DNA of 64,000 bases from an uncultured Clostridia bacterium (GTDB lineage: Bacteria > Bacillota > Clostridia > Christensenellales > CAG-917). The stretch lies in NCBI GenBank assembly GCA_944363035.1, contig CALVTS010000004.1, forward strand, positions 601 to 64,600. The letters run 5' to 3'. Both the position numbers and the translations under genes were made by a program. Positions within the stretch are counted from its first letter, which is position 1, and each line of letters opens with the position of its first letter. The notes below the pieces were generated by a model. That model made no database searches. It was not told the DNA's origin and saw nothing but the letters and a program-made list of their open reading frames with translations. This document shows positions 6,161 to 55,045 of this stretch, in pieces.

Positions 6161-7477
6161 ATGCGTGCGATAACAGCCATTTCGACGCCCGTAGGGGCGG
6201 GTGGTATCGGGATACTGCGCGTGTCCGGCGAGGACGCGCTGAAAGTGTCCGATACCATTTTCATTTGCAAGGACGGAGAGCCTCTTTCAAAGAGGGCTCT
6301 CGTCATGCGTTTCGGGACGTTTGACGCAGGAGATTTCCGCGACAAGGGTTACGCGGTCTATTTCCCCGCCGCCAAGGCGTATACGGGGGAGGACACCGTG
6401 GAGTTTTATCTCCACGGCGGAGTGCGCATAATGCAGGGGGCGCTGGACGCCGCTTTGCGCGCGGGCGCGCGCCTTGCCGAAAGAGGGGAGTTCACCAAAA
6501 GAGCGTATCTCGCGGGCAGGCTCTCTCTCGCGGACGCCGAAGGCGTGGCGGACATGATATCCGCCGAAAGCGCCGCCGCTCTCCGCGCCGCATATAGGCT
6601 TATGGAGGGCAGGCTGAGCCGAGAGATAGACGCCCTCACCGATGAGCTGGGCGGCATCCTCACGGGGCTGGAAGCCTCTTTGGATTATCCCGACGAGATG
6701 GAGGACGAAGTCCTGCCTCCGCTCGCCGAGGAGCTCGGACGGGCGCTCTCGCGGGTGGACGCCCTGCTCGCCACGGCAAAGACGGGCAGGATGGCGAAAT
6801 ACGGCGTCACCGCCGTCCTCGCGGGCAGACCCAATGCGGGCAAGAGCTCTTTGATGAACGCTCTGCTCGGGGAGGAGCGCGCCATCGTCACGGACATCGC
6901 GGGCACCACCAGGGATACGCTGGAAGGCAGTTTCGAGTGCGACGGCGTGAGGATAAACCTCGTGGATACCGCAGGCATAAGAGAGAGCGAGGACAGGATA
7001 GAGAGCGAGGGAGTGCGGCGTGCGCTCCGCGCCGCAGAAGGCGCCGACGTGGTGTTGTATGTGGTGGACACCACCGCGCCCTGCGAGGAGGAGATACCCT
7101 CCTTCGGGGAGGCGCGGGTCTTCACGGTGCGCAACAAGTGCGACGTCACCTCCTTCAAATGTCCGCGGATGTACGGGTGCTTCGCCGTGAGCGCCTTGGA
7201 CGGCAGAGGGGTGGAAGAATTGCGCCACGCGATCGCCGCGCTCTATGCAGAGGGCAAGACCGCAGACGGAGAGATCATCACATCCGAAAGGCACAAAGGC
7301 GCACTTTATCGTGCGAAACGCGCGCTTGAAAGCGCGATATCGTCACTTGGCGGAACGGTAGACCTCACTCTCGTGGACCTCAGGGAAGCGTATGACGCCC
7401 TTGGGGAGATAACGGGGAAGACCGCCACCGAGGACGTGGTGGACGCCATATTTGCGAAGTTCTGCGTGGGCAAATGA
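6161..7477 (+). CDS. mnmE: tRNA modification GTPase MnmE
   Basis: ATG at 6161 within ORF 5786..7477 gives MRAITAISTPVGAGGIGILRVSG. G1 GRPNAGKSSLMNAL. C-terminal FCVGK. Confidence 0.93.
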   Translation: MRAITAISTPVGAGGIGILRVSGEDALKVSDTIFICKDGEPLSKRALVMRFGTFDAGDFRDKGYAVYFPAAKAYTGEDTVEFYLHGGVRIMQGALDAALRAGARLAERGEFTKRAYLAGRLSLADAEGVADMISAESAAALRAAYRLMEGRLSREIDALTDELGGILTGLEASLDYPDEMEDEVLPPLAEELGRALSRVDALLATAKTGRMAKYGVTAVLAGRPNAGKSSLMNALLGEERAIVTDIAGTTRDTLEGSFECDGVRINLVDTAGIRESEDRIESEGVRRALRAAEGADVVLYVVDTTAPCEEEIPSFGEARVFTVRNKCDVTSFKCPRMYGCFAVSALDGRGVEELRHAIAALYAEGKTADGEIITSERHKGALYRAKRALESAISSLGGTVDLTLVDLREAYDALGEITGKTATEDVVDAIFAKFCVGK

Positions 7478-10189: not shown

Positions 10190-11128
10190 ATGCAAAGCGC
10201 AAAAAAAGGGAAACTTCTGTTTTGCGGGATCGCGCTCGCGCTTGCCCTCCTGATGTGCGCCGTCTGCCTGTTTGCGGCGGCTGAGGATACCGCAAGCGCG
10301 GCAAATCTCGGGCAGGGTAGCACTGGGGACAAGGTGAGCGAGATGCAACGCAAGCTCAAAAACTGGGGATATTACGACGGCTCGGTGGACGGCATATTCG
10401 GTTCGGGCACGAGAAAGGCGGTGGAGTATTTCCAGCGCACCAACGGACTCACACCCGACGGCGTGGTGGGACGCGCGACTGCGGCGGCTCTCGGCATGAC
10501 CCTTTCCGGGAGTTCCTCGGGAGGGAACGAGTCGTCTTCCGGAGTCCTGCGCAGGGGTAGCTCGGGAGACAGGGTGAGCGAGATGCAACGCAAACTCAAA
10601 AACTGGGGATATTACGAGGGCTCGGTGGACGGCGTGTTCGGTCAGGGCACCGAGAGCGCGATCAAGTATTTCCAGCGCACCAACGGGCTCACGCCGGACG
10701 GCGTGGTGGGACGCGCGACTGCGGCGGCTCTCGGCATGACTCTTTCGGGGAGTTCCTCGGGCGGCGGCGAAAGCGTGTCCTCCTCCGATCTCGAACTGCT
10801 CGCGCGCGTGGTGTACGGCGAGGCGAGAGGGGAGGAATATATCGGTCAGGTAGCGGTCGCCGCCGTGGTGCTCAACCGCGTGGCGAGCCCGAGTTTCCCG
10901 GGCACCATCGCGGGGGTGGTGTATCAGGCGGGCGCATTCGACTGCGTGGCGGACGGGCAGATAAACCTCTCTCCCGACGACACCGCGAGGAGGGCGGCGC
11001 AGGACGCGCTGAACGGCTGGGATCCGACCTACGGCTGTCTGTTTTATTACAATCCGCGCACGGCGACTTCGGCGTGGATGCTGTCAAGACCCGTCAAACT
11101 TGTCATCGGACAACACAATTTCTGCTAG
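10190..11128 (+). CDS. sleB: Spore cortex-lytic enzyme SleB (two PG_binding_1 domains plus SleB/CwlJ hydrolase domain)
   Basis: ATG at 10190, 5 nt after GGAGG (track start 10184 is GTG). Duplicated GSSGDxVSEMQRKLKNWGYY...GLTPDGVVG modules. C-terminal LLARVVYGEARGEEYIGQVAVAAVVLNRV. Confidence 0.9.
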   Translation: MQSAKKGKLLFCGIALALALLMCAVCLFAAAEDTASAANLGQGSTGDKVSEMQRKLKNWGYYDGSVDGIFGSGTRKAVEYFQRTNGLTPDGVVGRATAAALGMTLSGSSSGGNESSSGVLRRGSSGDRVSEMQRKLKNWGYYEGSVDGVFGQGTESAIKYFQRTNGLTPDGVVGRATAAALGMTLSGSSSGGGESVSSSDLELLARVVYGEARGEEYIGQVAVAAVVLNRVASPSFPGTIAGVVYQAGAFDCVADGQINLSPDDTARRAAQDALNGWDPTYGCLFYYNPRTATSAWMLSRPVKLVIGQHNFC

Positions 11129-36721: not shown

Positions 36722-37002
36722 CATGCCAGACAGGAATAATACGAACCAGCCTCGGAGCAATTCTTTTCGGCGCTTTTGCACAGCCGAAACTTGCCAATAT
36801 GTACACTATTGCCTGCGTTCCGCCCGTGCAACATCATCCGAAAATCTCTTGCTCTGAGGTGCTAGCAGTTCCGCGCCAACCGATTTTTGGCTGAGCAAGG
36901 AAGTTGCCGCCGCTAATACCCCACCGTATTGGCAAGGCGGATGACGCGGTTCAGGCGGAAATCGGCGGCGCTGAACCTGATTCGTATTATTCCTGTCTGG
37001 CA
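36722..37002 (+). repeat. 281-bp element with perfect 23-bp terminal inverted repeats (MITE-like or long closing stem of a structured RNA)
   Basis: ATGCCAGACAGGAATAATACGAA (36722-36744) is the exact reverse complement of 36980-37002. No ORF. Several internal helices. Partial copy at 9446-9526. Confidence 0.6.
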
Positions 37003-37057
37003 TATCACGCAGACGCGGCGCATATCCTGATAAGAATCACAAACAAGGAGGCGGAAT

Positions 37058-42204: not shown

Positions 42205-42364
42205 GTTGTCTTTGAGAGCAGGGAAGGGGCGCAAAGGGCTTTTTTAGGGAAAAGAGAGGGTATTAAAGCGTCTATTTATATTCAAAACGCTTGCGGGCGC
42301 GTCCGCGTGTGTGTATAATAGTCATACTATTGTAATCAATCCGTCAAACCTTTTCGGAGTGTAT

Positions 42365-44647
42365 ATGAAAAAAAGAATCGCAATTTTGTTGGTCCTCATA
42401 ATCGCGCTGTTCGTATGCGTCGGCGCGCTTGCGGGTTGCAACTCCATCATCGTGCTCAACGAGGACAGGGACGCCAATCAGGTGGTCGCCTCCGTGAGCT
42501 ACGAAGGGCAGACCTACAACATCCGCAAGTTCGAGTTGGAGCTCAGTTTCAATTCCTACGCTTATGTGTACCACACCTACTACGGCATGAGCTATCAGGA
42601 GGTGGCGGACTATCTGTTGCAATCCCTCGCCCAGCGTGAACTGCTCGTGCTGTTCGCCAAGGCGGAGCTTGTGGAACTTGCGGGTCTCGACGCCGCTCCT
42701 GCGGACGTCACCGTGAAGCAACTGCTCTCGGAAAGCGAGCGCGACCGCGCGGTGAAGAATGTCAACGAGGACGTCCTTTCCGCGATAAATTCCGCCGTGG
42801 AGTCCCTCATCGGCGCGAACAACGGCTCTTCCTCCGGCTCTTCGGACAAGGAAGAGTATGAGGAATACAACGGCAAGGACGCCATCACCGTCCTCTTCGA
42901 CTCTCAGGGCGGCAGCGCGGTCGAGCGTCAGCGCATAAAGAGCGGCACCACCGCTTTCGAGCCCGACGATCCCACCCGCGACGGCTACACCTTCTACGGC
43001 TGGTACACCGATCCCGAGTGCACCGAAAAGTTCGATTTCGCCACCGAACTCACCCAAAAGACCACGCTCTACGCCAAATGGGCGGAGTATCTCGAGCCCC
43101 GTCCCGTGCGCGAAGCCGAGGAGGAGGATCCCGACGCGGATTACGATCCCGACGCCTCTCTTCCCGAGGCGGATCGCGCTCCCCGCGCTTTCGACGGCGA
43201 GGATAAGCTCACTGCGGAGTACCGCAAGCTCATCATGAGCGGCGAGGTCGAGCTGGATTGCCTTTCCGCCTACTCCGAAGACAAGAGAGCGGAGTATCTC
43301 GACTTGTACCTCGACGACGCGGCGGAGGATGTCGCAAACGACTTTGCCGAGCTCCGCACCGGCTACGATTACTATCTCGACAACGAGATGAAGACCCTCC
43401 TCATCACCAGATTGGAGCGCAAGCTCGGCGAGAGCTCTTCCGTCACCGAGGCGGAGGTGCAGGCGCGCTTCGACAAGATGGTGGAGGACAACCGCGAGAC
43501 TTACGGCGGCAACCGCACCTCCTATGAGTCCGCGCTCACAGACGCGCTCGCCTCTTCCTACTATCACGAATACAAGGATTACGGGTTCGTCATCAACATC
43601 CTTCTCCGTCTGCCCGACGAGGATCTCGCCGTGCTCACCGAGATGGTGGAGGACGGGGTGTATGCCGACGGCGTCATAGAGAAAAAACGCGACGCCCTCC
43701 TCAAAGAGATGGAGATCCACGTCAGCAATCCCGACTACGATCCCGAATATACCTGCGACAAGCATCCTTGCGAAGCGGGCTCCGATTGCGATCCCATGAC
43801 CTGCCCCGAACACGAGTGCGTCGGCACCGTGAACGAGGGCGCGGATTGGAACAACATCGTGGAGTTCGTCTACAACAAGGAGACCGGTGAGGCGGAGATC
43901 AGATACAACGTCACCGCCTGCCCCTCCATGGCGTATCTGCCCGGCACCGTTCCCGCCTTCTCGGACGGCGAGCAGACGGGCATAGTGGAGCAGATCTATC
44001 AAAGTTTCGAAAAGGTCACCCAAGCCGTAAGCGACGGGATGTCCCGCGTGCTCGGAGTCTACTGGATGCGCGAGCTCGCCACCGCCTGGCTCTATCTCGT
44101 AGGAGATGACGAGGGCGGCACCACTTCGAGCTCCAACAACGGCGGGCTCGGATATATGATCACGCCCGAGGGCACGGATTCCGGCTACATCGACGCTTTC
44201 ACCGATCAGGCGCGCGCGCTCGTCAAGCAGGGCACAGGCTCCTACACCACGGGCGGGTTCGAGGAGTCCTACGTCTTCGGCGACAGCTTTATCGAGTCGG
44301 GTTCCACAAGCGGCGCATATGCCGGCATTTTCATCCTCGTCGCGACCTCCGTGCCGTATGACGACAGCCTCCTCGGCGTCGTCGAAAACGAGGACGGCAG
44401 CTATTCCGAGATCACTCTCGGTTACTCCGCCACCCCCGACGTGCTCCCCCTCGATTATGTCATAGAGTACGGTCCCACCCTCGAGGATTGCGTCACCATC
44501 CGTATGCAGATCGAGGAGACCCTCCTCTCCGGCAAACAAGCCGCCGTCTATGAGGAGACCGTCAACGCCTTCGGCGTCAAACACTTCGAGTCAAACATCT
44601 CCTATAATAGGGGGGCGTATGAGTCGTTGTGGGAGGACCTGGACTAA
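42365..44647 (+). CDS. Large PrsA/SurA-like foldase lipoprotein with inserted Listeria-Bacteroides repeat domain
   Basis: ATG at 42365 gives MKKRIAILLVLIIALFVCVGALAGC (lipobox). SurA_N-like N-terminus. ITVLFDSQGG...GYTFYGWYTDPECTEKFDF repeat. Degenerate parvulin-like GGLGYM...AFTDQARAL...AGIFILV near the C-terminus. Confidence 0.6.
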   Translation: MKKRIAILLVLIIALFVCVGALAGCNSIIVLNEDRDANQVVASVSYEGQTYNIRKFELELSFNSYAYVYHTYYGMSYQEVADYLLQSLAQRELLVLFAKAELVELAGLDAAPADVTVKQLLSESERDRAVKNVNEDVLSAINSAVESLIGANNGSSSGSSDKEEYEEYNGKDAITVLFDSQGGSAVERQRIKSGTTAFEPDDPTRDGYTFYGWYTDPECTEKFDFATELTQKTTLYAKWAEYLEPRPVREAEEEDPDADYDPDASLPEADRAPRAFDGEDKLTAEYRKLIMSGEVELDCLSAYSEDKRAEYLDLYLDDAAEDVANDFAELRTGYDYYLDNEMKTLLITRLERKLGESSSVTEAEVQARFDKMVEDNRETYGGNRTSYESALTDALASSYYHEYKDYGFVINILLRLPDEDLAVLTEMVEDGVYADGVIEKKRDALLKEMEIHVSNPDYDPEYTCDKHPCEAGSDCDPMTCPEHECVGTVNEGADWNNIVEFVYNKETGEAEIRYNVTACPSMAYLPGTVPAFSDGEQTGIVEQIYQSFEKVTQAVSDGMSRVLGVYWMRELATAWLYLVGDDEGGTTSSSNNGGLGYMITPEGTDSGYIDAFTDQARALVKQGTGSYTTGGFEESYVFGDSFIESGSTSGAYAGIFILVATSVPYDDSLLGVVENEDGSYSEITLGYSATPDVLPLDYVIEYGPTLEDCVTIRMQIEETLLSGKQAAVYEETVNAFGVKHFESNISYNRGAYESLWEDLD

Positions 44648-44769
44648 AACGCCGTCATTTGGCGAATAGCTTTGTCAAAGCCTCTGCCGTAGATGCTCAC
44701 TTACGATCAAGTAAGCTCCGCCTCTCGGCAGAGGCTTTTTCGCGCTCTTCATCCAAATGGCGACGTTTT
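44646..44769 (+). repeat. Module H1a: long hairpin starting inside the upstream stop codon
   Basis: Arms AAAACGCCGTCATTTGG (44646-44662) and CCAAATGGCGACGTTTT (44753-44769). Inner terminator-like hairpin GCCTCTGCCG...CGGCAGAGGC plus TTTTT (44680-44740). Confidence 0.7.
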
Positions 44770-44867
44770 CACCATACGAGCGTTCGGGTGAGGGTATCTC
44801 CTAACCCGTCGTACACTTATTCGGAGTGTGTTTGACTCCTACCTATACGCATTCGAAGACGGTCTCG

Positions 44868-44929
44868 CGCGCCGCTCAGCCAAACTTGCACAGCGGGCGT
44901 TTGCGCCCGCTCTTGCAAGTCGCGGCGCG
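44868..44929 (+). other. Module M copy 1: three-tier hairpin
   Basis: CGCGCCGC-tcagccaa-ACTTGCA-ca-GCGGGCG-tttg-CGCCCGC-tct-TGCAAGT-c-GCGGCGCG. Confidence 0.7.
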
Positions 44930-45177
44930 TATCTGCGACCTCGCAAGCTAGACGAATAATTAAGTAGACACGGGCTCGGTGCGCGTCGAGTCGCCCTCCT
45001 CGCCCCGCGAGCGACGTTCAGTCTATACTGGTATCCGCTTGATTATGTGAGTGCGAAACTCAAACCTTTTTCAAGAGGTGTTTTCATAAAGGCGCGGTTT
45101 GCGCCTTTATGAAAAAGTATATCCCGCATTTTAGGAGGACAGTCCTCTATTTCGAGTGGGGGAGGAGTCCCGAAGGG

Positions 45178-45230
45178 GAGGAGGGGGTACAATATTACCA
45201 TGTAAGGGGACGTAAACTCCATTTAATCAG
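45178..45230 (+). repeat. Module T copy 1 (tail module)
   Basis: GAGGAGGGGGTACAATATTACCATGTAAGGGGACGTAAACTCCATTTAATCAG. ~90% identical to the reverse complement of 51315-51367. Confidence 0.7.
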
Positions 45231-45557
45231 CCTGAATACGACGTGAACTTATTCAGAGCGTCCCTGAACCCGACGAATAAGTGTGCGTGGGGTTCAATCT
45301 AATTTAATTTGGGGGGTTACGTTCCCGCGACAGGGAAGTATTGTTGCCCCCTTCCTGCGGGTTTCCCCCAAAATCGTTCCCCCTTAAAAGGGAACCCACC
45401 ATTTTGGGGGAAACCTTCGGCGCTCGGGCATGAGGGCTACCGAGGACGGCGCCTCTGCGGCGCCGCCATGTTATGCCGCTTGCAATGCGCCCGCTTCGCG
45501 AAGAGAATGGCGCATTGCCGGCGCACTTTTCGTCTCGCCCTCGGCACTCACTTCGTC

Positions 45558-45607
45558 GCCGCCGACTTGCAAGAGGGCTACGCCCTGTGCAAGTTTGGCT
45601 AGGCGGC
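45558..45607 (-). other. Module M copy 2 (inverted orientation)
   Basis: Minus strand: GCCGCC-tagccaa-ACTTGCA-ca-GGGC-gta-GCCC-tct-TGCAAGT-c-GGCGGC. Confidence 0.65.
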
Positions 45608-45775
45608 TCCACTCCGAATAAGTTCACGTTGGGTTCAAACACACCCCGAATGAGTATACGTGGGAGTTCAAACACACCCCAAAGAGTTCACGTGGGAATC
45701 AAGCACGTTCCGAATAAATGTACGTAAAGTTCAAACACGCCCCAAATAAGTATACGTGGGAATCAAACGAGCATT

Positions 45776-46807
45776 TTATTTCTGCGGCTTGTTTGTGTCG
45801 GTTTTTTTGCGTTTGGGTTTTATGCGGAGCAACAATCCCTCGCGGGTGTGTTTGCGCAAAAAGGCGCGTATGCCGAACATCGCTTCGCGGGAGATGCGCA
45901 GGGCTTGCACCACCGCAAAGGCGTGCACCGCGAGCTTGCCCGTGCCGTGATAGTGTTCCACCTCCACGCCCAGGGAGCGCAGTTTTTCCACGAGGTCGAA
46001 AGTGAGTATGGCGAGGGCGTCGTACTGCGCCGAGATGGCGAATGTGGGCGGGAAATCCTTGGTGACGTGGTATATGGGCGAGATCTCGTTTTTTTCCTCT
46101 TCGGTGAGCTCGTCGAAGGGTTTTCCCCCGCAGTATGACTGGACGTAAAGTTCTATGTTGCGGAAGGGGAGCCCTATGGCTTTTTCCAGGTCGAAGACGC
46201 CGCAGTTGAGCACGAGTCCCGCGATCTTCTGGTGCCGACTTACGGGATCGAGGTCGAAGCGCGCGTTGTATTCGGGGTCGGATGAGATCGCGCCCGCCAT
46301 TGCCGAGAGATGCGCGCCCGCGGATTCGCCGCCCACAAATATGGCGTCCGTGTCGATGTTGTACTATTCGGCGTGCTGTTTGAGCCAGGCGAACGCCTTG
46401 TATATGTTGCGTATGGGCTCCGGATGGGGATAAAAAGGGGAGTGCCCGTAATAGAGGCTGACCACGAAGTATCCCGCCTCCGCGATGCGGGTGTTGAACG
46501 CCTCCCTCGTTTCCGGAAGCCCGCCTATCCAGCCGCCGCCGTGTATATAGACGAAGACGGGAGCCTTGATTTCGGGGTCTCTGTCCTTGCGCTGATAGAT
46601 GTTGAGATAGAGCCTTTCATTGTCGGGCGCGTAGCGCACGAACCTTGTCACGTCCACATTTATGGAGCGTTTGGCGTTGAACACGGTGAGGAATCCCAGC
46701 AGCTCGTTTTTGGCGTGTCCGGTGCGGACGTATGCGAATTTGACGTCGTAGAAGAGCTTTTCCTGAAACGCCTTCATGTCGTCGAGGGAGAATTTTTTTC
46801 TTTTCAT
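45776..46807 (-). pseudogene. Alpha/beta-hydrolase fold-3 esterase/lipase interrupted by one in-frame TAG
   Basis: Track ORFs 46364..46807 (HGGGW oxyanion motif VYIHGGGWIGG) and 45776..46336 (nucleophile elbow GGESAGA) are in the same frame, separated only by TAG at 46364-46366 (..AWLKQHAE*YNIDTDAIFVGGESAG..). Confidence 0.7.
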
Positions 46808-49327: not shown

Positions 49328-50605
49328 GTGAAAATTGCGGCGTTAGTATTGTTTTTTGTCACTTACGTGCTTTTGTTGGCGTTGCCGAAATTCAGGTCGT
49401 ACATCGCCGCGTTCGTGGGAGTCCTCTTCCTTTGCCTCAACATCCTGCCTTGGCAGGAATTTGCCACCGCGATAGACTGGAACGTGCTCATGATTATCGC
49501 GGGCACCATGGGCATAGTCGCCCTGTTCATAGAATCCAAGATGCCGGCTCTGCTTGCCGATCTGCTCATCGCGCGTATGCCCAACGTCAAGTGGGCGATC
49601 ATCGCTCTCTCTCTGTTCGCGGGATTGGTGAGCGCGTTCGTGGACAACGTGGCGACGGTGCTGATGGTCGCGCCCATCGCGCTCAGCCTCTCCAAAAAGC
49701 TGGATATATCTCCCGTGCCCGGCATCATCGCCATCGCCGTTGCGTCCAACTTGCAGGGCGCGGCGACCCTCGTCGGCGACACCACCTCCATAATGCTCGG
49801 GAGCGCCACGGGCATGAGCTTCATAGATTTCTTTGTGATGGACGGCAAGATGGGTATGTTCTGGATAGTCCAGATCGCCGCTCTCGCCGCCACCGTATAT
49901 CTCCTCTTCGTCTTCCGCAAGGACAAGCAGAAGATAGAGTACACCGAGCGCACCGAGGTCAAGGACTTCTTCCCCTCCTTTCTCCTCATCGCGATGCTCG
50001 CCCTCCTCATCGGCACCTCCTTTGTCGCCGACAAGCCCGATGTCACTCCCGGCATCATCTGCGTCGGTCTCATGGTCGTCGGCATGATATACACCGTCAT
50101 CCGCCGCAAGGACTTTTCGGGGGTCAAAAACACCCTGAAAGAGATAGATTTCAAGACCTTGCTCCTCCTTGCGGGGATATTCCTCATCATCGGAGGGCTG
50201 GATTCCGTCGGCATCATCGACGACATCGCCGATATCCTCGTCAAGGCGAGCGGCGGCAACATCTTCGCGTTGTACTCCCTCCTCGTGTGGGCGTCCGTGC
50301 TCGTCTCTGCTTTCATCGACAACATCCCCTACGTCGCCACGATGCTGCCCGTCATAGCGGGCATAGCCACAGGCATGGGATTGGGCGCGGGGGAGAGCAT
50401 GGTGCTCTATCTCGGTCTGCTCTCGGGCGCCACTCTCGGCGGCAATCTCACCCCCATCGGTGCCTCCGCCAACATCACCGCCACCGGCATCCTCCGCAAA
50501 GAAGGCTACGAAGTCAAGACCCTCCAATACATGAAGATCAGCGTCCCCTTCACTCTGATAGCCGTATTGGTGGGGTATGGGTTGGTGTGGCTCGTCTACT
50601 CCTAA
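49328..50605 (+). CDS. ArsB/NhaD-superfamily permease
   Basis: C-terminal part of track ORF 47603..50605. GTG at 49328, 8 nt after GGAGG, gives (M)KIAALVLFFVTYVLL. FVDNVATVLMVAPIA and NLQGAATLVGDTTSIMLG motifs. Confidence 0.75.
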   Translation: MKIAALVLFFVTYVLLLALPKFRSYIAAFVGVLFLCLNILPWQEFATAIDWNVLMIIAGTMGIVALFIESKMPALLADLLIARMPNVKWAIIALSLFAGLVSAFVDNVATVLMVAPIALSLSKKLDISPVPGIIAIAVASNLQGAATLVGDTTSIMLGSATGMSFIDFFVMDGKMGMFWIVQIAALAATVYLLFVFRKDKQKIEYTERTEVKDFFPSFLLIAMLALLIGTSFVADKPDVTPGIICVGLMVVGMIYTVIRRKDFSGVKNTLKEIDFKTLLLLAGIFLIIGGLDSVGIIDDIADILVKASGGNIFALYSLLVWASVLVSAFIDNIPYVATMLPVIAGIATGMGLGAGESMVLYLGLLSGATLGGNLTPIGASANITATGILRKEGYEVKTLQYMKISVPFTLIAVLVGYGLVWLVYS

Positions 50606-50727
50606 AACGCCGCCATTTTGTGTGATACTGCGTCAGACGCCCTGCCACGATTGCTCACGTACGGAAAGTACGCCGCGCACCCGTGGACAGGGCATCTTCC
50701 TTGTCTGACGCAAAATGGCGGCGTTTT
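50604..50727 (+). repeat. Module H1b: long hairpin starting inside the upstream stop codon
   Basis: Perfect 17-nt arms AAAACGCCGCCATTTTG (50604-50620) and CAAAATGGCGGCGTTTT (50711-50727). Second tier GCGTCAGAC/GTCTGACGC. Interior unrelated to H1a. Confidence 0.7.
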
Positions 50728-50857
50728 CACCATACGAGCGTTTGGGCGAGGATATCTCCCAACCCATCGTACCATTGTTCGGTGTGTGCTTGAACTTCAC
50801 GTACACTTATTCGGAGTGTATTTTAATCTCACAAATACCCATTCGGAGACGGAACTA

Positions 50858-50915
50858 CGCGCCGCTCAGCCAAGCGTTCACAGGCGGCGTGCCGCCTCTT
50901 GAACGCCGCGGCGCG
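50858..50915 (+). other. Module M copy 3: three-tier hairpin
   Basis: CGCGCCGC-tcagccaa-GCGTTCA-ca-GGCGGC-gt-GCCGCC-tct-TGAACGC-c-GCGGCGCG. Confidence 0.7.
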
Positions 50916-51314
50916 CCCCCTGAGTGCCGAGCAACGCCGTAAACCTAAAAAGACACGGGCTTTAACTTGCGAGCGCCGAATTCCTCCTCCCGTGCCGGGC
51001 TTTCAGCAAGTGCAGGTCTCCGCTTGATTATGTGAGTGCGATATAAAAAACTTTTGTAGGAATGCGAAGTCAGTCCCGCATGATGCGGGGACTGAACTCG
51101 TTCGGACACGGGGGAGGAAAGCCCGCAGGGAAGGAGGGGGAGCCAACATTCACCCGCGAGACGTATAGCATGAGAGAGCGTGCTTGAACACGACGAATAA
51201 GTGTGTGTGGGATTCAGGCACACTTCGAATAAGTGCATGTGGGAGTCAAACACACCCCGAATGAGTATACGTGGGGTTCAAACGAGCACCGAAAGAGTGT
51301 GCGGCGTGCCCAAA

Positions 51315-51367
51315 CTAATTTAATGGAGTTTACGTCCCCTAACATGGAAGTATTGTACCCCCTCCTC
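51315..51367 (-). repeat. Module T copy 4 (inverted relative to copy 1)
   Basis: Minus strand: GAGGAGGGGGTACAATACTTCCATGTTAGGGGACGTAAACTCCATTAAATTAG. Confidence 0.7.
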
Positions 51368-51514
51368 ACTATACCCCACAAAATCACCTTTGGTGATGTT
51401 TGCGGAGACCTCGGACGCGCCGCTCAGCCAAGCGTGGTTTCATCTTCGAATGAGTGTGCGTTGAGTTCAAAGCAAAAGGAGCTCCGCTCTGTGCGAAAGT
51501 CCTTTTTTGCTTGC

Positions 51515-54790: not shown

Positions 54791-54819
54791 TTGCAACACA
54801 TGGTCGGATATGATACAAT
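54791..54819 (+). promoter_or_regulatory. Sigma-A-type promoter driving the cobalamin riboswitch
   Basis: TTGCAA (54791-54796), 17 nt, TACAAT (54814-54819). Confidence 0.65.
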
Positions 54820-54825
54820 CCACTT

Positions 54826-55045
54826 GCCTCGGGTGCGGCGAAAGCCGATAAACGGGAAGTCGGGTGAAGATCCCGCACAGCCCCCGCTACTGTAAGGTGA
54901 AACGGAGCACGCCATTCCTGTATGCAGGGAGAAGGCGCCGCGGCGCGAGCCGACCGAAGTCAGGAGACCGGCCCGAGAGCGTCAAGCAGTTGTTTCGGTG
55001 GGAGACGACGGCGTGTTTCGCCTTGCCTTCCGCAGAAAACGGGAG
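54826..55045 (+). promoter_or_regulatory. Cobalamin (B12) riboswitch
   Basis: Core GGGAAGTCGGGTGAAGATCCCGCACAGCCCCCGCTACTGTAA and B12 box GAAGTCAGGAGACCGGCC. CCTCGGG...CCCGAG closing pair. Expression platform runs into the GGGAGG RBS. Confidence 0.85.

Follow-up and report, generated by a model that had tools for sequence, protein, structure and literature searches.

Positions 44645-45775 of the 64,000-nucleotide (nt) stretch of DNA analysed here (the window), which comes from an uncultured Clostridia bacterium, lie between two convergent genes, contain no credible gene and are occupied by a mosaic of lineage-specific structured repeats. This region, R1, is a pile-up of three folded repeat families, namely a long palindromic hairpin (H0), units of 32 nt and a core, and a sister cluster, R2, is present further along the window. 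The core family is undescribed, measures approximately 310-360 nt and, in a clade of uncultured gut Clostridia (Candidatus Limadaptatus and relatives), numbers at least 10 copies per genome; its fold is kept by compensatory substitutions, and its R1 members are non-coding. R1 and R2 are probably mosaic clusters of non-autonomous, lineage-specific interspersed structured repeats located in the 3' junction of convergent genes.

Copies, distribution and non-coding nature of the core

An exact 20-mer taken from a 23-mer shared by R1 and R2 was used as the query to scan a genome collection. It retrieved 11 copies in the metagenome-assembled genome (MAG) of uncultured Clostridia bacterium BRZ_ET__bin92 (hereafter bin92), two copies in Ca. 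Limadaptatus stercoravium and one in another Clostridia MAG; a match in Sarmatiella was due to chance. Metagenome contigs were queried with a gapped pattern of the three-tier hairpin of the core (hairpin M), and a profile built from the first copies was then run with nhmmer. Among the matches listed, 47 full-length cores, 46 of them distinct, were confirmed by nhmmer: at least 11 are found in one MAG and the rest in Ca. Limadaptatus and in metagenome contigs, many of which are labelled human gut. Sixty-nine metagenome pattern matches were discarded as chance occurrences in G+C-rich DNA, mostly in soil-type records, that lack the hairpin. The further copies that the sequence-only reading (a first description of this DNA from its letters alone) had proposed to look for in genomes and MAGs were therefore found, with these 46 distinct cores and about 51 copies of H0.

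Individual assemblies carry 8-10 or more core copies. The two cores of R1 belong to paralogous subfamilies, A and B, and type-B cores were found by nhmmer in at least six further loci (L013, 92% identical to the window copy by blastn; L112; L034; L083; L041; L018). The window does not belong to bin92; in the syntenic Mfd/Flg_new region, the two are 74-81% identical.

The gap is bounded by the stop codon TAA (44645-44647) of an open reading frame (ORF) at 42311-44647 (+) and by the stop codon (45776-45778) of an ORF at 45776-46336 (-). The earlier claim that it holds no credible gene between two convergent stops is borne out: its ORFs, of at most 123 amino acids (aa), gave no significant Pfam match, a single MazE-like match being below threshold (E 0.0055, 17.1 bits for a cut-off of 22). 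Furthermore, the longest ORF (123 aa) is broken by stops in the 92%-identical L013 copy, and the lengths of the cores differ between copies by 46, 44, 40, 33 and 4 nt, a series that does not keep to multiples of three and that coding sequence would not tolerate. That R1 is decayed coding sequence or an assembly artefact, as the short ORFs and the breakage of metagenome contigs in this gap might suggest, is extremely improbable given these observations. It is true that conspecific contigs from other samples stop within R1, as is expected of a multi-copy repeat, but several samples independently yielded an assembly of the R1 sequence at 99.6-100% identity, and dozens of homologous copies are present in other genomes. 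These clusters break the metagenome assemblies of the clade and create spurious ORFs, and a model for them would improve MAG annotation.

Compensatory substitutions in the core fold

The model tested on an alignment of the 46 cores (A2) comprises hairpin M, a long-range helix (P3) and three small hairpins. The proportion of paired cells in A2 is 89.3%, versus 43-54% when the 3' partners are slid by 1-3 columns; the covariation score is 0.169, versus 0.025-0.057 for the slid models; and the 139 double-change cells compare with 58 +/- 7 in shuffles, none of the 500 shuffles reaching 139. In the middle and upper tiers of hairpin M, five pairs alternate between AU and GC or between GC, UA and CG: pairs 82:120, 84:118 and 86:116 alternate AU/GC, and pairs 92:109 and 93:108 also alternate. 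P3 is a CCUCC/GGAGG helix of 16-17 bp (UUCCUCC.CCCGUGCCG with CGGCACGGG.GGAGGAA) that contains three alternating pairs (295:448, 296:447 and 299:443) and is re-formed by another sequence (CUCCUC/GAGGAG) in the subfamily of R1 core A. The sequence-only reading had proposed the three-tier hairpin, the pairing of a pyrimidine run with a downstream purine run (CCTCCTC with GGGGGAGGAG) and the conservation of pairing where the sequence differs; covariation supports the first two, and compensatory changes are indeed observed for the third.

The internal loop UCAGCCAA of hairpin M is invariant across the core family. P3 closes a central domain that contains the near-invariant 23-mer, and the fold also includes a G-rich 3' domain. 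The search patterns placed no constraint on the covarying tiers, on P3 or on the G-rich 3' domain, nor on two long unpaired stretches, GACACGGGC and GGGGGAGGAAAGCCCGAAGGGAAGGAGGGGG, that are near-invariant. Large differences in length between cores occur only where hairpins have been inserted, at a small number of fixed points. One such hairpin is the perfect one at 45081-45115 of R1, which had been listed among the parts of the modular element; it does exist, but it is a private insertion found otherwise only in locus L123. The other perfect hairpin that had been pointed out (in core B), the ATTTAAT tail and the 23-mer common to R1 and R2 are likewise present. Two candidate helices of the central domain were poorly supported, namely an extended helix GUGCAG...CCGC / GCGAGG...GCAC (51% paired) and a local hairpin GUCCCGCA...UGCGAGGAC (69% paired).

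To our knowledge, bacteria have few covariation-supported folds of more than 300 nt, and those known have historically proved to be ribozymes or ribonucleoprotein (RNP) scaffolds. The core, which no current Rfam family matches, is thus a concrete new candidate for RNA biochemistry. It could be a functional family of large non-coding RNA (ncRNA) genes, such as a ribozyme or an RNP scaffold, that the host or a selfish RNA-based cycle maintains, in which case its dispersal near gene ends would be secondary and H0 and the units would be mere neighbours. This explanation is in agreement with the size of the core (more than 300 nt), its multi-helix fold including a long-range helix, its near-invariant unpaired stretches that the search did not force, and the restriction of its length variation to inserted hairpins at fixed points, which known structured RNAs also show. 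It is nevertheless considered rather unlikely: the helices of the central domain are unsupported, strand asymmetry is weak, promoter-like sites do not rise above shuffles, truncated and nested copies occur (R2, 51321-51390), and at least 10 copies per genome lie beside unrelated genes. The comparison of orthologous sites, given below, bears on it in both directions.

Empty and filled orthologous sites

Three loci (L142, L143 and L144) were found through adjacent CitMHS homologues (84-88% protein identity; approximately 77-80% nucleotide identity for L142 and L143). Gene order is kept in all three (Flg_new -> <- esterase ... CitMHS ->), the R1 site measures 78-230 nt and the R2 site 105-192 nt, each with a plain stem-loop terminator, and no core is present across the 33 kb examined. 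The orthologous gaps, whose comparison had been proposed by the sequence-only reading, are filled in other relatives: locus L109, from a closer relative (85% nucleotide identity), has H0, units and a core at the R2 site, and locus L009 of bin92 has a cluster of a different subfamily at the R1 site. The empty sites in syntenic relatives indicate that the clusters are insertions in one sub-lineage, and the sequences suggest later turnover or homogenization of the clusters after insertion. The absence of cores from the R1 and R2 sites of sister species also argues against an ncRNA gene family, which is favoured, in contrast, by the occupancy of orthologous sites across species and by core blocks that keep 86-88% identity at one orthologous site although the remainder of that intergenic region can no longer be aligned. 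Like transposable elements of the miniature inverted-repeat kind (MITEs), the cores are multi-copy, non-coding, shorter than about 500 bp, and present or absent at orthologous sites.

H0 hairpins on stop codons

The left 125 nt of R1, which the sequence-only reading had left undescribed, are a member of a separate and far more abundant family, H0. The R1 copy folds at -59.9 kcal/mol (z -9.1), with an outer stem AAAACGCCGTCATTTGG / CCAAATGGCGACGTTTT and an inner G+C stem followed by T5, terminator-like, at 44720-44735; the scan for stem and T-run covered the two H0 copies of the window, and that of R2 represents a second subtype without the T-run. In the sampled loci, the family has about 51 members, frequently arranged in tandem with 3-5 to an array. 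Its pairing, assessed on 46 copies, is supported by compensatory double changes at 23 of the 33 consensus pairs, around a conserved apical CACGTACG-N5-GTACG. H0 resembles SPRITE elements in that it has a G+C stem with a T-run, lies at gene 3' ends and forms clusters located mostly in convergent gaps.

The ends of H0 are inverted (CTRA...TYAG), are followed by about 15 complementary nt and offer a stop codon in either orientation. Indeed, at 28 ends (17 left and 11 right), a flanking ORF of 170-1000 codons terminates in frame on the terminal TRA, and a separate count found stop-codon docking at 21 of 33 left ends; the ends that are not on stop codons face other repeats or contig ends. The outermost H0 of each array starts on the TAA or TGA of the adjoining gene (44645-44647, 50603-50605 and loci L008-L139; other examples are L083:741-865, L034:5712-5836 and L017:4319-4441). 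Comparison with element-less relatives, possible for CitMHS and Flg_new, shows the stop codon at its native position. At the PyrB-PyrI locus (L014, L125), the ORF runs approximately 16 nt into the H0 arm (ORF end 2613, H0 2505-2629) and apparently stops at TAG.

In the relatives, the stem of the terminator at the R1 site (AAACGCCGTC CCG...CGG GACGGCGTTT) has the 10-nt sequence that also forms the outer stem of the window H0, so H0 may have originated by insertion into the loop of an ancestral terminator; the spacing from the stop codon differs between the relatives and the window, which makes this origin only a lead. H0 would supply or replace the intrinsic terminator of the gene, its terminal TRA doubling as the stop codon. 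The position of H0 raises the question of whether it reflects targeting or selection for terminators fused to stop codons. A bolder proposal is that the core of about 330 nt is a large catalytic or guide-like RNA of a new class, an RNA-based mobile element without an ORF that promotes its own spread. The docking of H0 on stop codons would then reflect targeting coupled to translation termination or to mRNA 3' ends rather than ordinary DNA transposition followed by selection; this proposal is regarded as quite improbable.

A fourth mini-family was also noticed, made of hairpins of about 36-46 nt bracketed by GGGGNCCCC...GGGG (e.g. GGGGTCCCCGTCGCGAAATCTTTGATTTCGGGATGGGG), which sit inside H0 copies and at fixed points inside cores (L012:6426-6594, L008:4252-4420, L021:2931-3349, L070:3747-4110, L011:4358-4728 and L020:561-972).

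Genomic context and known families

Cores were found in 19 convergent, 13 tandem and 4 divergent gaps, a distribution that agrees with the tolerance of insertions reported for REP and SPRITE elements. The genes upstream of them are unrelated housekeeping genes (ABC transporter, PyrB-PyrI, ProRS, GDH, CitMHS, histidine kinase, UvrD, FtsZ, BipA, alpha-galactosidase) among which no functional theme was found. An apparent co-orientation with transcription (upstream gene on the same strand, 28 versus 14) was rejected, because every element in a convergent gap scores as co-oriented. No recurrent partner protein emerged from an all-against-all BLAST of the 841 neighbouring ORFs located within 3 kb of cores at about 60 loci, the only recurrent neighbours being syntenic housekeeping sets and spurious ORFs inside the repeats.

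The sequence-only reading could place the region in no known family, and this holds against Rfam 15, with ROOL, GOLLD, OLE, raiA, HEARO/omega RNA, group I and II introns and small ribozymes among the families considered: at the gathering threshold, the only match in the whole window is a cobalamin riboswitch, a search of R1 and R2 at E<=10 returned sub-threshold noise only (miRNA and snoRNA models), and five other core loci gave no relevant match. Furthermore, blastn of the core against phage and plasmid collections gave no match, and scans of viral contigs gave none except for one chance match in coding DNA.

RNA or DNA, and the case for mobile repeats

The elements would spread in trans via a machinery that recognizes their fold, and this fold would act in single-stranded nucleic acid. 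RNA arising from read-through of the adjoining gene is somewhat favoured over single-stranded DNA (ssDNA), on account of the oriented stem and T5 of H0, the conservation of unpaired stretches and an architecture that tolerates insertions, from all of which this role is inferred. The clusters would then shape the 3'-end formation or the stability of the flanking mRNAs.

Several observations weigh against the interpretation as mobile, transcribed repeats. As regards the fold, the search patterns required the outer stem and loop of hairpin M (metagenome matches) or the 20-mer (genome matches), so that the invariance of these parts is partly by construction. As regards mobility, no terminal inverted repeats were found for the core elements, the flanking 32-nt units being co-oriented and not inverted; the flanks of the filled window site and of the empty L142-L144 sites align too poorly for a target-site duplication to be read; and no autonomous, transposase-bearing partner was found within 3 kb of the cores at about 60 loci. 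Mobility consequently rests only on presence or absence between species. Moreover, orthologous sites are filled in several species (PyrB, BipA, CitMHS and Flg_new sets), an occupancy that long residence or a host function would explain as well as mobility would. As regards transcription, G-U cells outnumber A-C cells 19:12 in the best helices of the core and 48:27 in those of H0, which is weak strand evidence; the R2 core folds no less well on its minus strand than on its plus strand; the terminator-like hairpin of the R1 H0, between the gene and core A, argues against efficient read-through; a scan for promoter-like sites found nothing above shuffles; and cores in tandem gaps are co-oriented with the genes in seven cases and anti-oriented in six, i.e. 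without any transcription-linked orientation bias.

Some of these observations would be explained if the folds acted in DNA, a trans-encoded transposase, of the HUH/Y1 type (RAYT-like) or another, then using H0, the units and the cores as ssDNA hairpin substrates, and the cluster being an analogue of a REP/BIME array without an RNA role. This possibility, considered unlikely, is consistent with the near-perfect palindrome, inverted ends and tandem arrays of H0, with the about equal folding of both core strands, with an excess of G-U over A-C of only about 1.6-1.8-fold, with the lack of orientation bias in tandem gaps, and with the enrichment in convergent gaps, as reported for REP and the terminator-like SPRITE elements (PMC3184786). 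However, no transposase-like protein recurs near the approximately 60 sampled loci (a single distant gene would escape such a survey), REP-type substrates are far smaller and simpler than an element of 330 nt that combines conserved loops with a long-range helix, and the oriented stem and T5 of one H0 subtype make sense only on a transcribed strand.

Comparison with described systems

REP units are short sequences of about 20-40 nt that form stem-loops, BOX elements have the layout boxA-boxB(n)-boxC, with an internal unit of about 45 nt in variable number, and class C group II introns are multi-copy structured RNAs located just downstream of intrinsic-terminator hairpins. The last resemble the core in their position after a terminator-like hairpin, but the core has no Rfam group II match, no reverse transcriptase ORF and no recognizable domain V/VI, and it is about half the size of a minimal ribozyme of this type. 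Like the REP/BIME of Enterobacteria and Pseudomonas, R1 is an extragenic mosaic of structured, non-coding, multi-copy units with no transposase linked to each copy; however, the modules are longer here (H0, 125 nt; core, about 330 nt), the core includes a long-range helix as well as conserved loops, and there is no sequence relationship. No RAYT partner turned up in the stretches of 8-14 kb around copies, in which no search was aimed at RAYT specifically.

REP elements are reported to favour gaps between convergent genes and to affect mRNA stability, SPRITE elements are terminator-like and enriched in convergent gaps, and BOX elements are non-autonomous and transcribed (PMC3184786). SPRITE, compared here by description only, is the best analogue of H0 through its terminator-like character, but H0 starts on the stop codon, forms tandem arrays of up to five, has large cores alongside and belongs to a different phylogenetic group. 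The BOX layout of Streptococcus pneumoniae resembles the units(n)-core-units(m) arrangement observed here; in contrast, BOX has no counterpart of the 330-nt core, and the units flank the core instead of lying inside it. ROOL, GOLLD, OLE, raiA and HEARO share with the core a length of more than 300 nt, covarying multi-helix folds and conserved unpaired stretches, and several of them are tied to mobile DNA, whereas the core has no Rfam match, has no fewer than 10 chromosomal copies, located 3' of genes that are unrelated to one another, and matches no phage or plasmid. The core seems to have no counterpart among described interspersed repeats, and its size and fold complexity recall those of the large ornate RNAs.

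Two other candidates were rejected for the 32-nt units: a type III toxin-antitoxin (ToxI-like) array, as no family-matched ORF follows the units and the arrays flank a non-coding core, and a CRISPR array, as the units follow one another head-to-tail every 32 nt without spacers.

Organization of R1 and R2

The features of both clusters are collected in Table 1. In R1, elements A and B are placed tail-to-tail, and the units of each are co-oriented with their own core. The sequence-only reading had seen two convergent, diverged copies of one modular element; convergence is supported by blastn (44792-44956 matches 45529-45679 in inverted orientation), but the copies are members of paralogous subfamilies and not simply diverged. 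The sub-repeats of about 32 nt that it described are also present, with a period of 32 according to Tandem Repeats Finder (5.0 copies at 45610-45768 and 2.8 copies at 51194-51283), but they are thermodynamically ordinary: the unit-bearing stretches upstream of the cores have z -1.4 and the array at 45630-45775 has z of about +0.5, so that stable RNA hairpins formed by these arrays were rejected. The leader lies within a direct repeat, D3 (44755-44858 versus 50713-50816, 80% match), and tails akin to that of element A (ACGT-N-CCAATTAAA) are located 3' of several other cores.

R2 has the same order of H0, leader, units and core A as R1, and R1 44611-45070 aligns to R2 50569-51055 over 501 columns (blastn, E 3e-48). 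The last approximately 35 nt of the two upstream genes look similar, but this similarity was rejected as a part of the element, since both C-termini are native and conserved in element-less relatives. At the right edge of R2, the 5' strand and loop of hairpin M recur within 51415-51470 as a stray 21-nt sequence (ACGCGCCGCTCAGCCAAGCGT) that is identical to 50857-50877 and precedes one 32-nt unit; this looks like debris of a further element.

Table 1. Features of the R1 and R2 clusters (positions in the window).
Feature	Positions	Strand	Remarks
R1 H0	44645-44769	+	125-nt palindromic hairpin; bases 1-3 are the TAA (44645-44647) of the upstream gene
R1 leader	44770-44807	+	CACCATACGAGCGTTCGGGTGAGGGTATCTCCTAACCC; 38 nt, common to R1 and R2
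R1 units, about 1.7 of 32 nt	44808-44862	+	consensus CCCACGTAYACTYATTCGGRGTGTGTTTGAAY; co-oriented with core A; repeat families D5, I2, I7; unit register read from sequence
R1 core A, CCTCCTC subfamily	44851-45212	+	about 360 nt; nhmmer E 9e-84; in the A2 alignment of 46 cores
Hairpin M of core A, three-tier	44868-44929	+	internal loop TCAGCCAA
P2 of core A	44935-44943 / 44987-44994	+	
P3 of core A, long-range helix	44995-45006 / 45158-45167	+	CCTCCTC pairs with GGGGGAGGAG
Conserved 23-mer of core A	45034-45056	+	identical to 51019-51041
Private inserted hairpin of core A	45081-45115	+	perfect pairing
G-rich 3' domain of core A	45158-45199	+	
3' tail of element A	45200-45227	+	ends in ATTTAAT (45221-45227); read from sequence
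Two 32-nt units 3' of core B	45228-45298	-	repeats D15, I15; orientation read from sequence
R1 core B, paralogous subfamily	45299-45608	-	about 310 nt; fold z -4.6
Hairpin M of core B	~45556-45608	-	loop CTAGCCAA
Perfect hairpin of core B	45362-45413	-	
3' domain of core B	45299-45361	-	GGGGGAAACCCGCAGGAAGGGGGC...AAATTAAATTAG
Five 32-nt units 5' of core B	45609-45775	-	begin right after the stop codon of the minus-strand esterase fragment; D1
R2 cluster	50603-51470	+	same order of H0, leader, units and core A as R1
R2 H0	50603-50727		fold z -8.1
R2 leader and units	50728-50848		
R2 core A, TTCCTCC subfamily	50841-51167		nhmmer E 5e-87
R2 units, about 4.5	51175-51320	-	
R2 inverted core fragment	~51321-51390		5'-truncated
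R2 hairpin M 5' fragment and one 32-nt unit	51415-51470		

Flanking genes and other observations

The ORF upstream of R1 had been called PrsA-like, a name that Pfam does not sustain, its sole domain being Flg_new (Listeria-Bacteroides repeat). The ORF at 45776-46336 (-), which had been called an esterase, has a BD-FAE/Abhydrolase_3 domain and is the C-terminal half of a split gene (45776-46807, -) with two ORFs of 147 aa (46364-46807) and 186 aa (45776-46336). L142 and L143 have one intact esterase gene of 346-349 aa, and the split is either a frameshifted pseudogene or a sequencing error adjoining the repeat cluster.

In bin92, a further repeat family, GGGACAAATGGGGACGGGGCAAAAATGTTCAAATG...CATTTGAACATTTGCGCCCCCAAGCCCC...CCCCGGCTTTACCCCGTCCCC, adjoins cores (L012:~7110-7290, and also L009, L013, L017, L018 and L021); it is absent from the window. 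Elsewhere in the window, the cobalamin riboswitch (RF00174) is located at 54814-54990 (+) with 93.9 bits. A 36-nt inverted repeat (36723-36758 / 36968-37003, 86% complementary) surrounds 209 nt and could be an invertible segment or a MITE, and two direct repeats of 210 nt (10315-10524 / 10555-10764, 88% identical, 240 nt start-to-start) are probably a duplicated in-gene domain.

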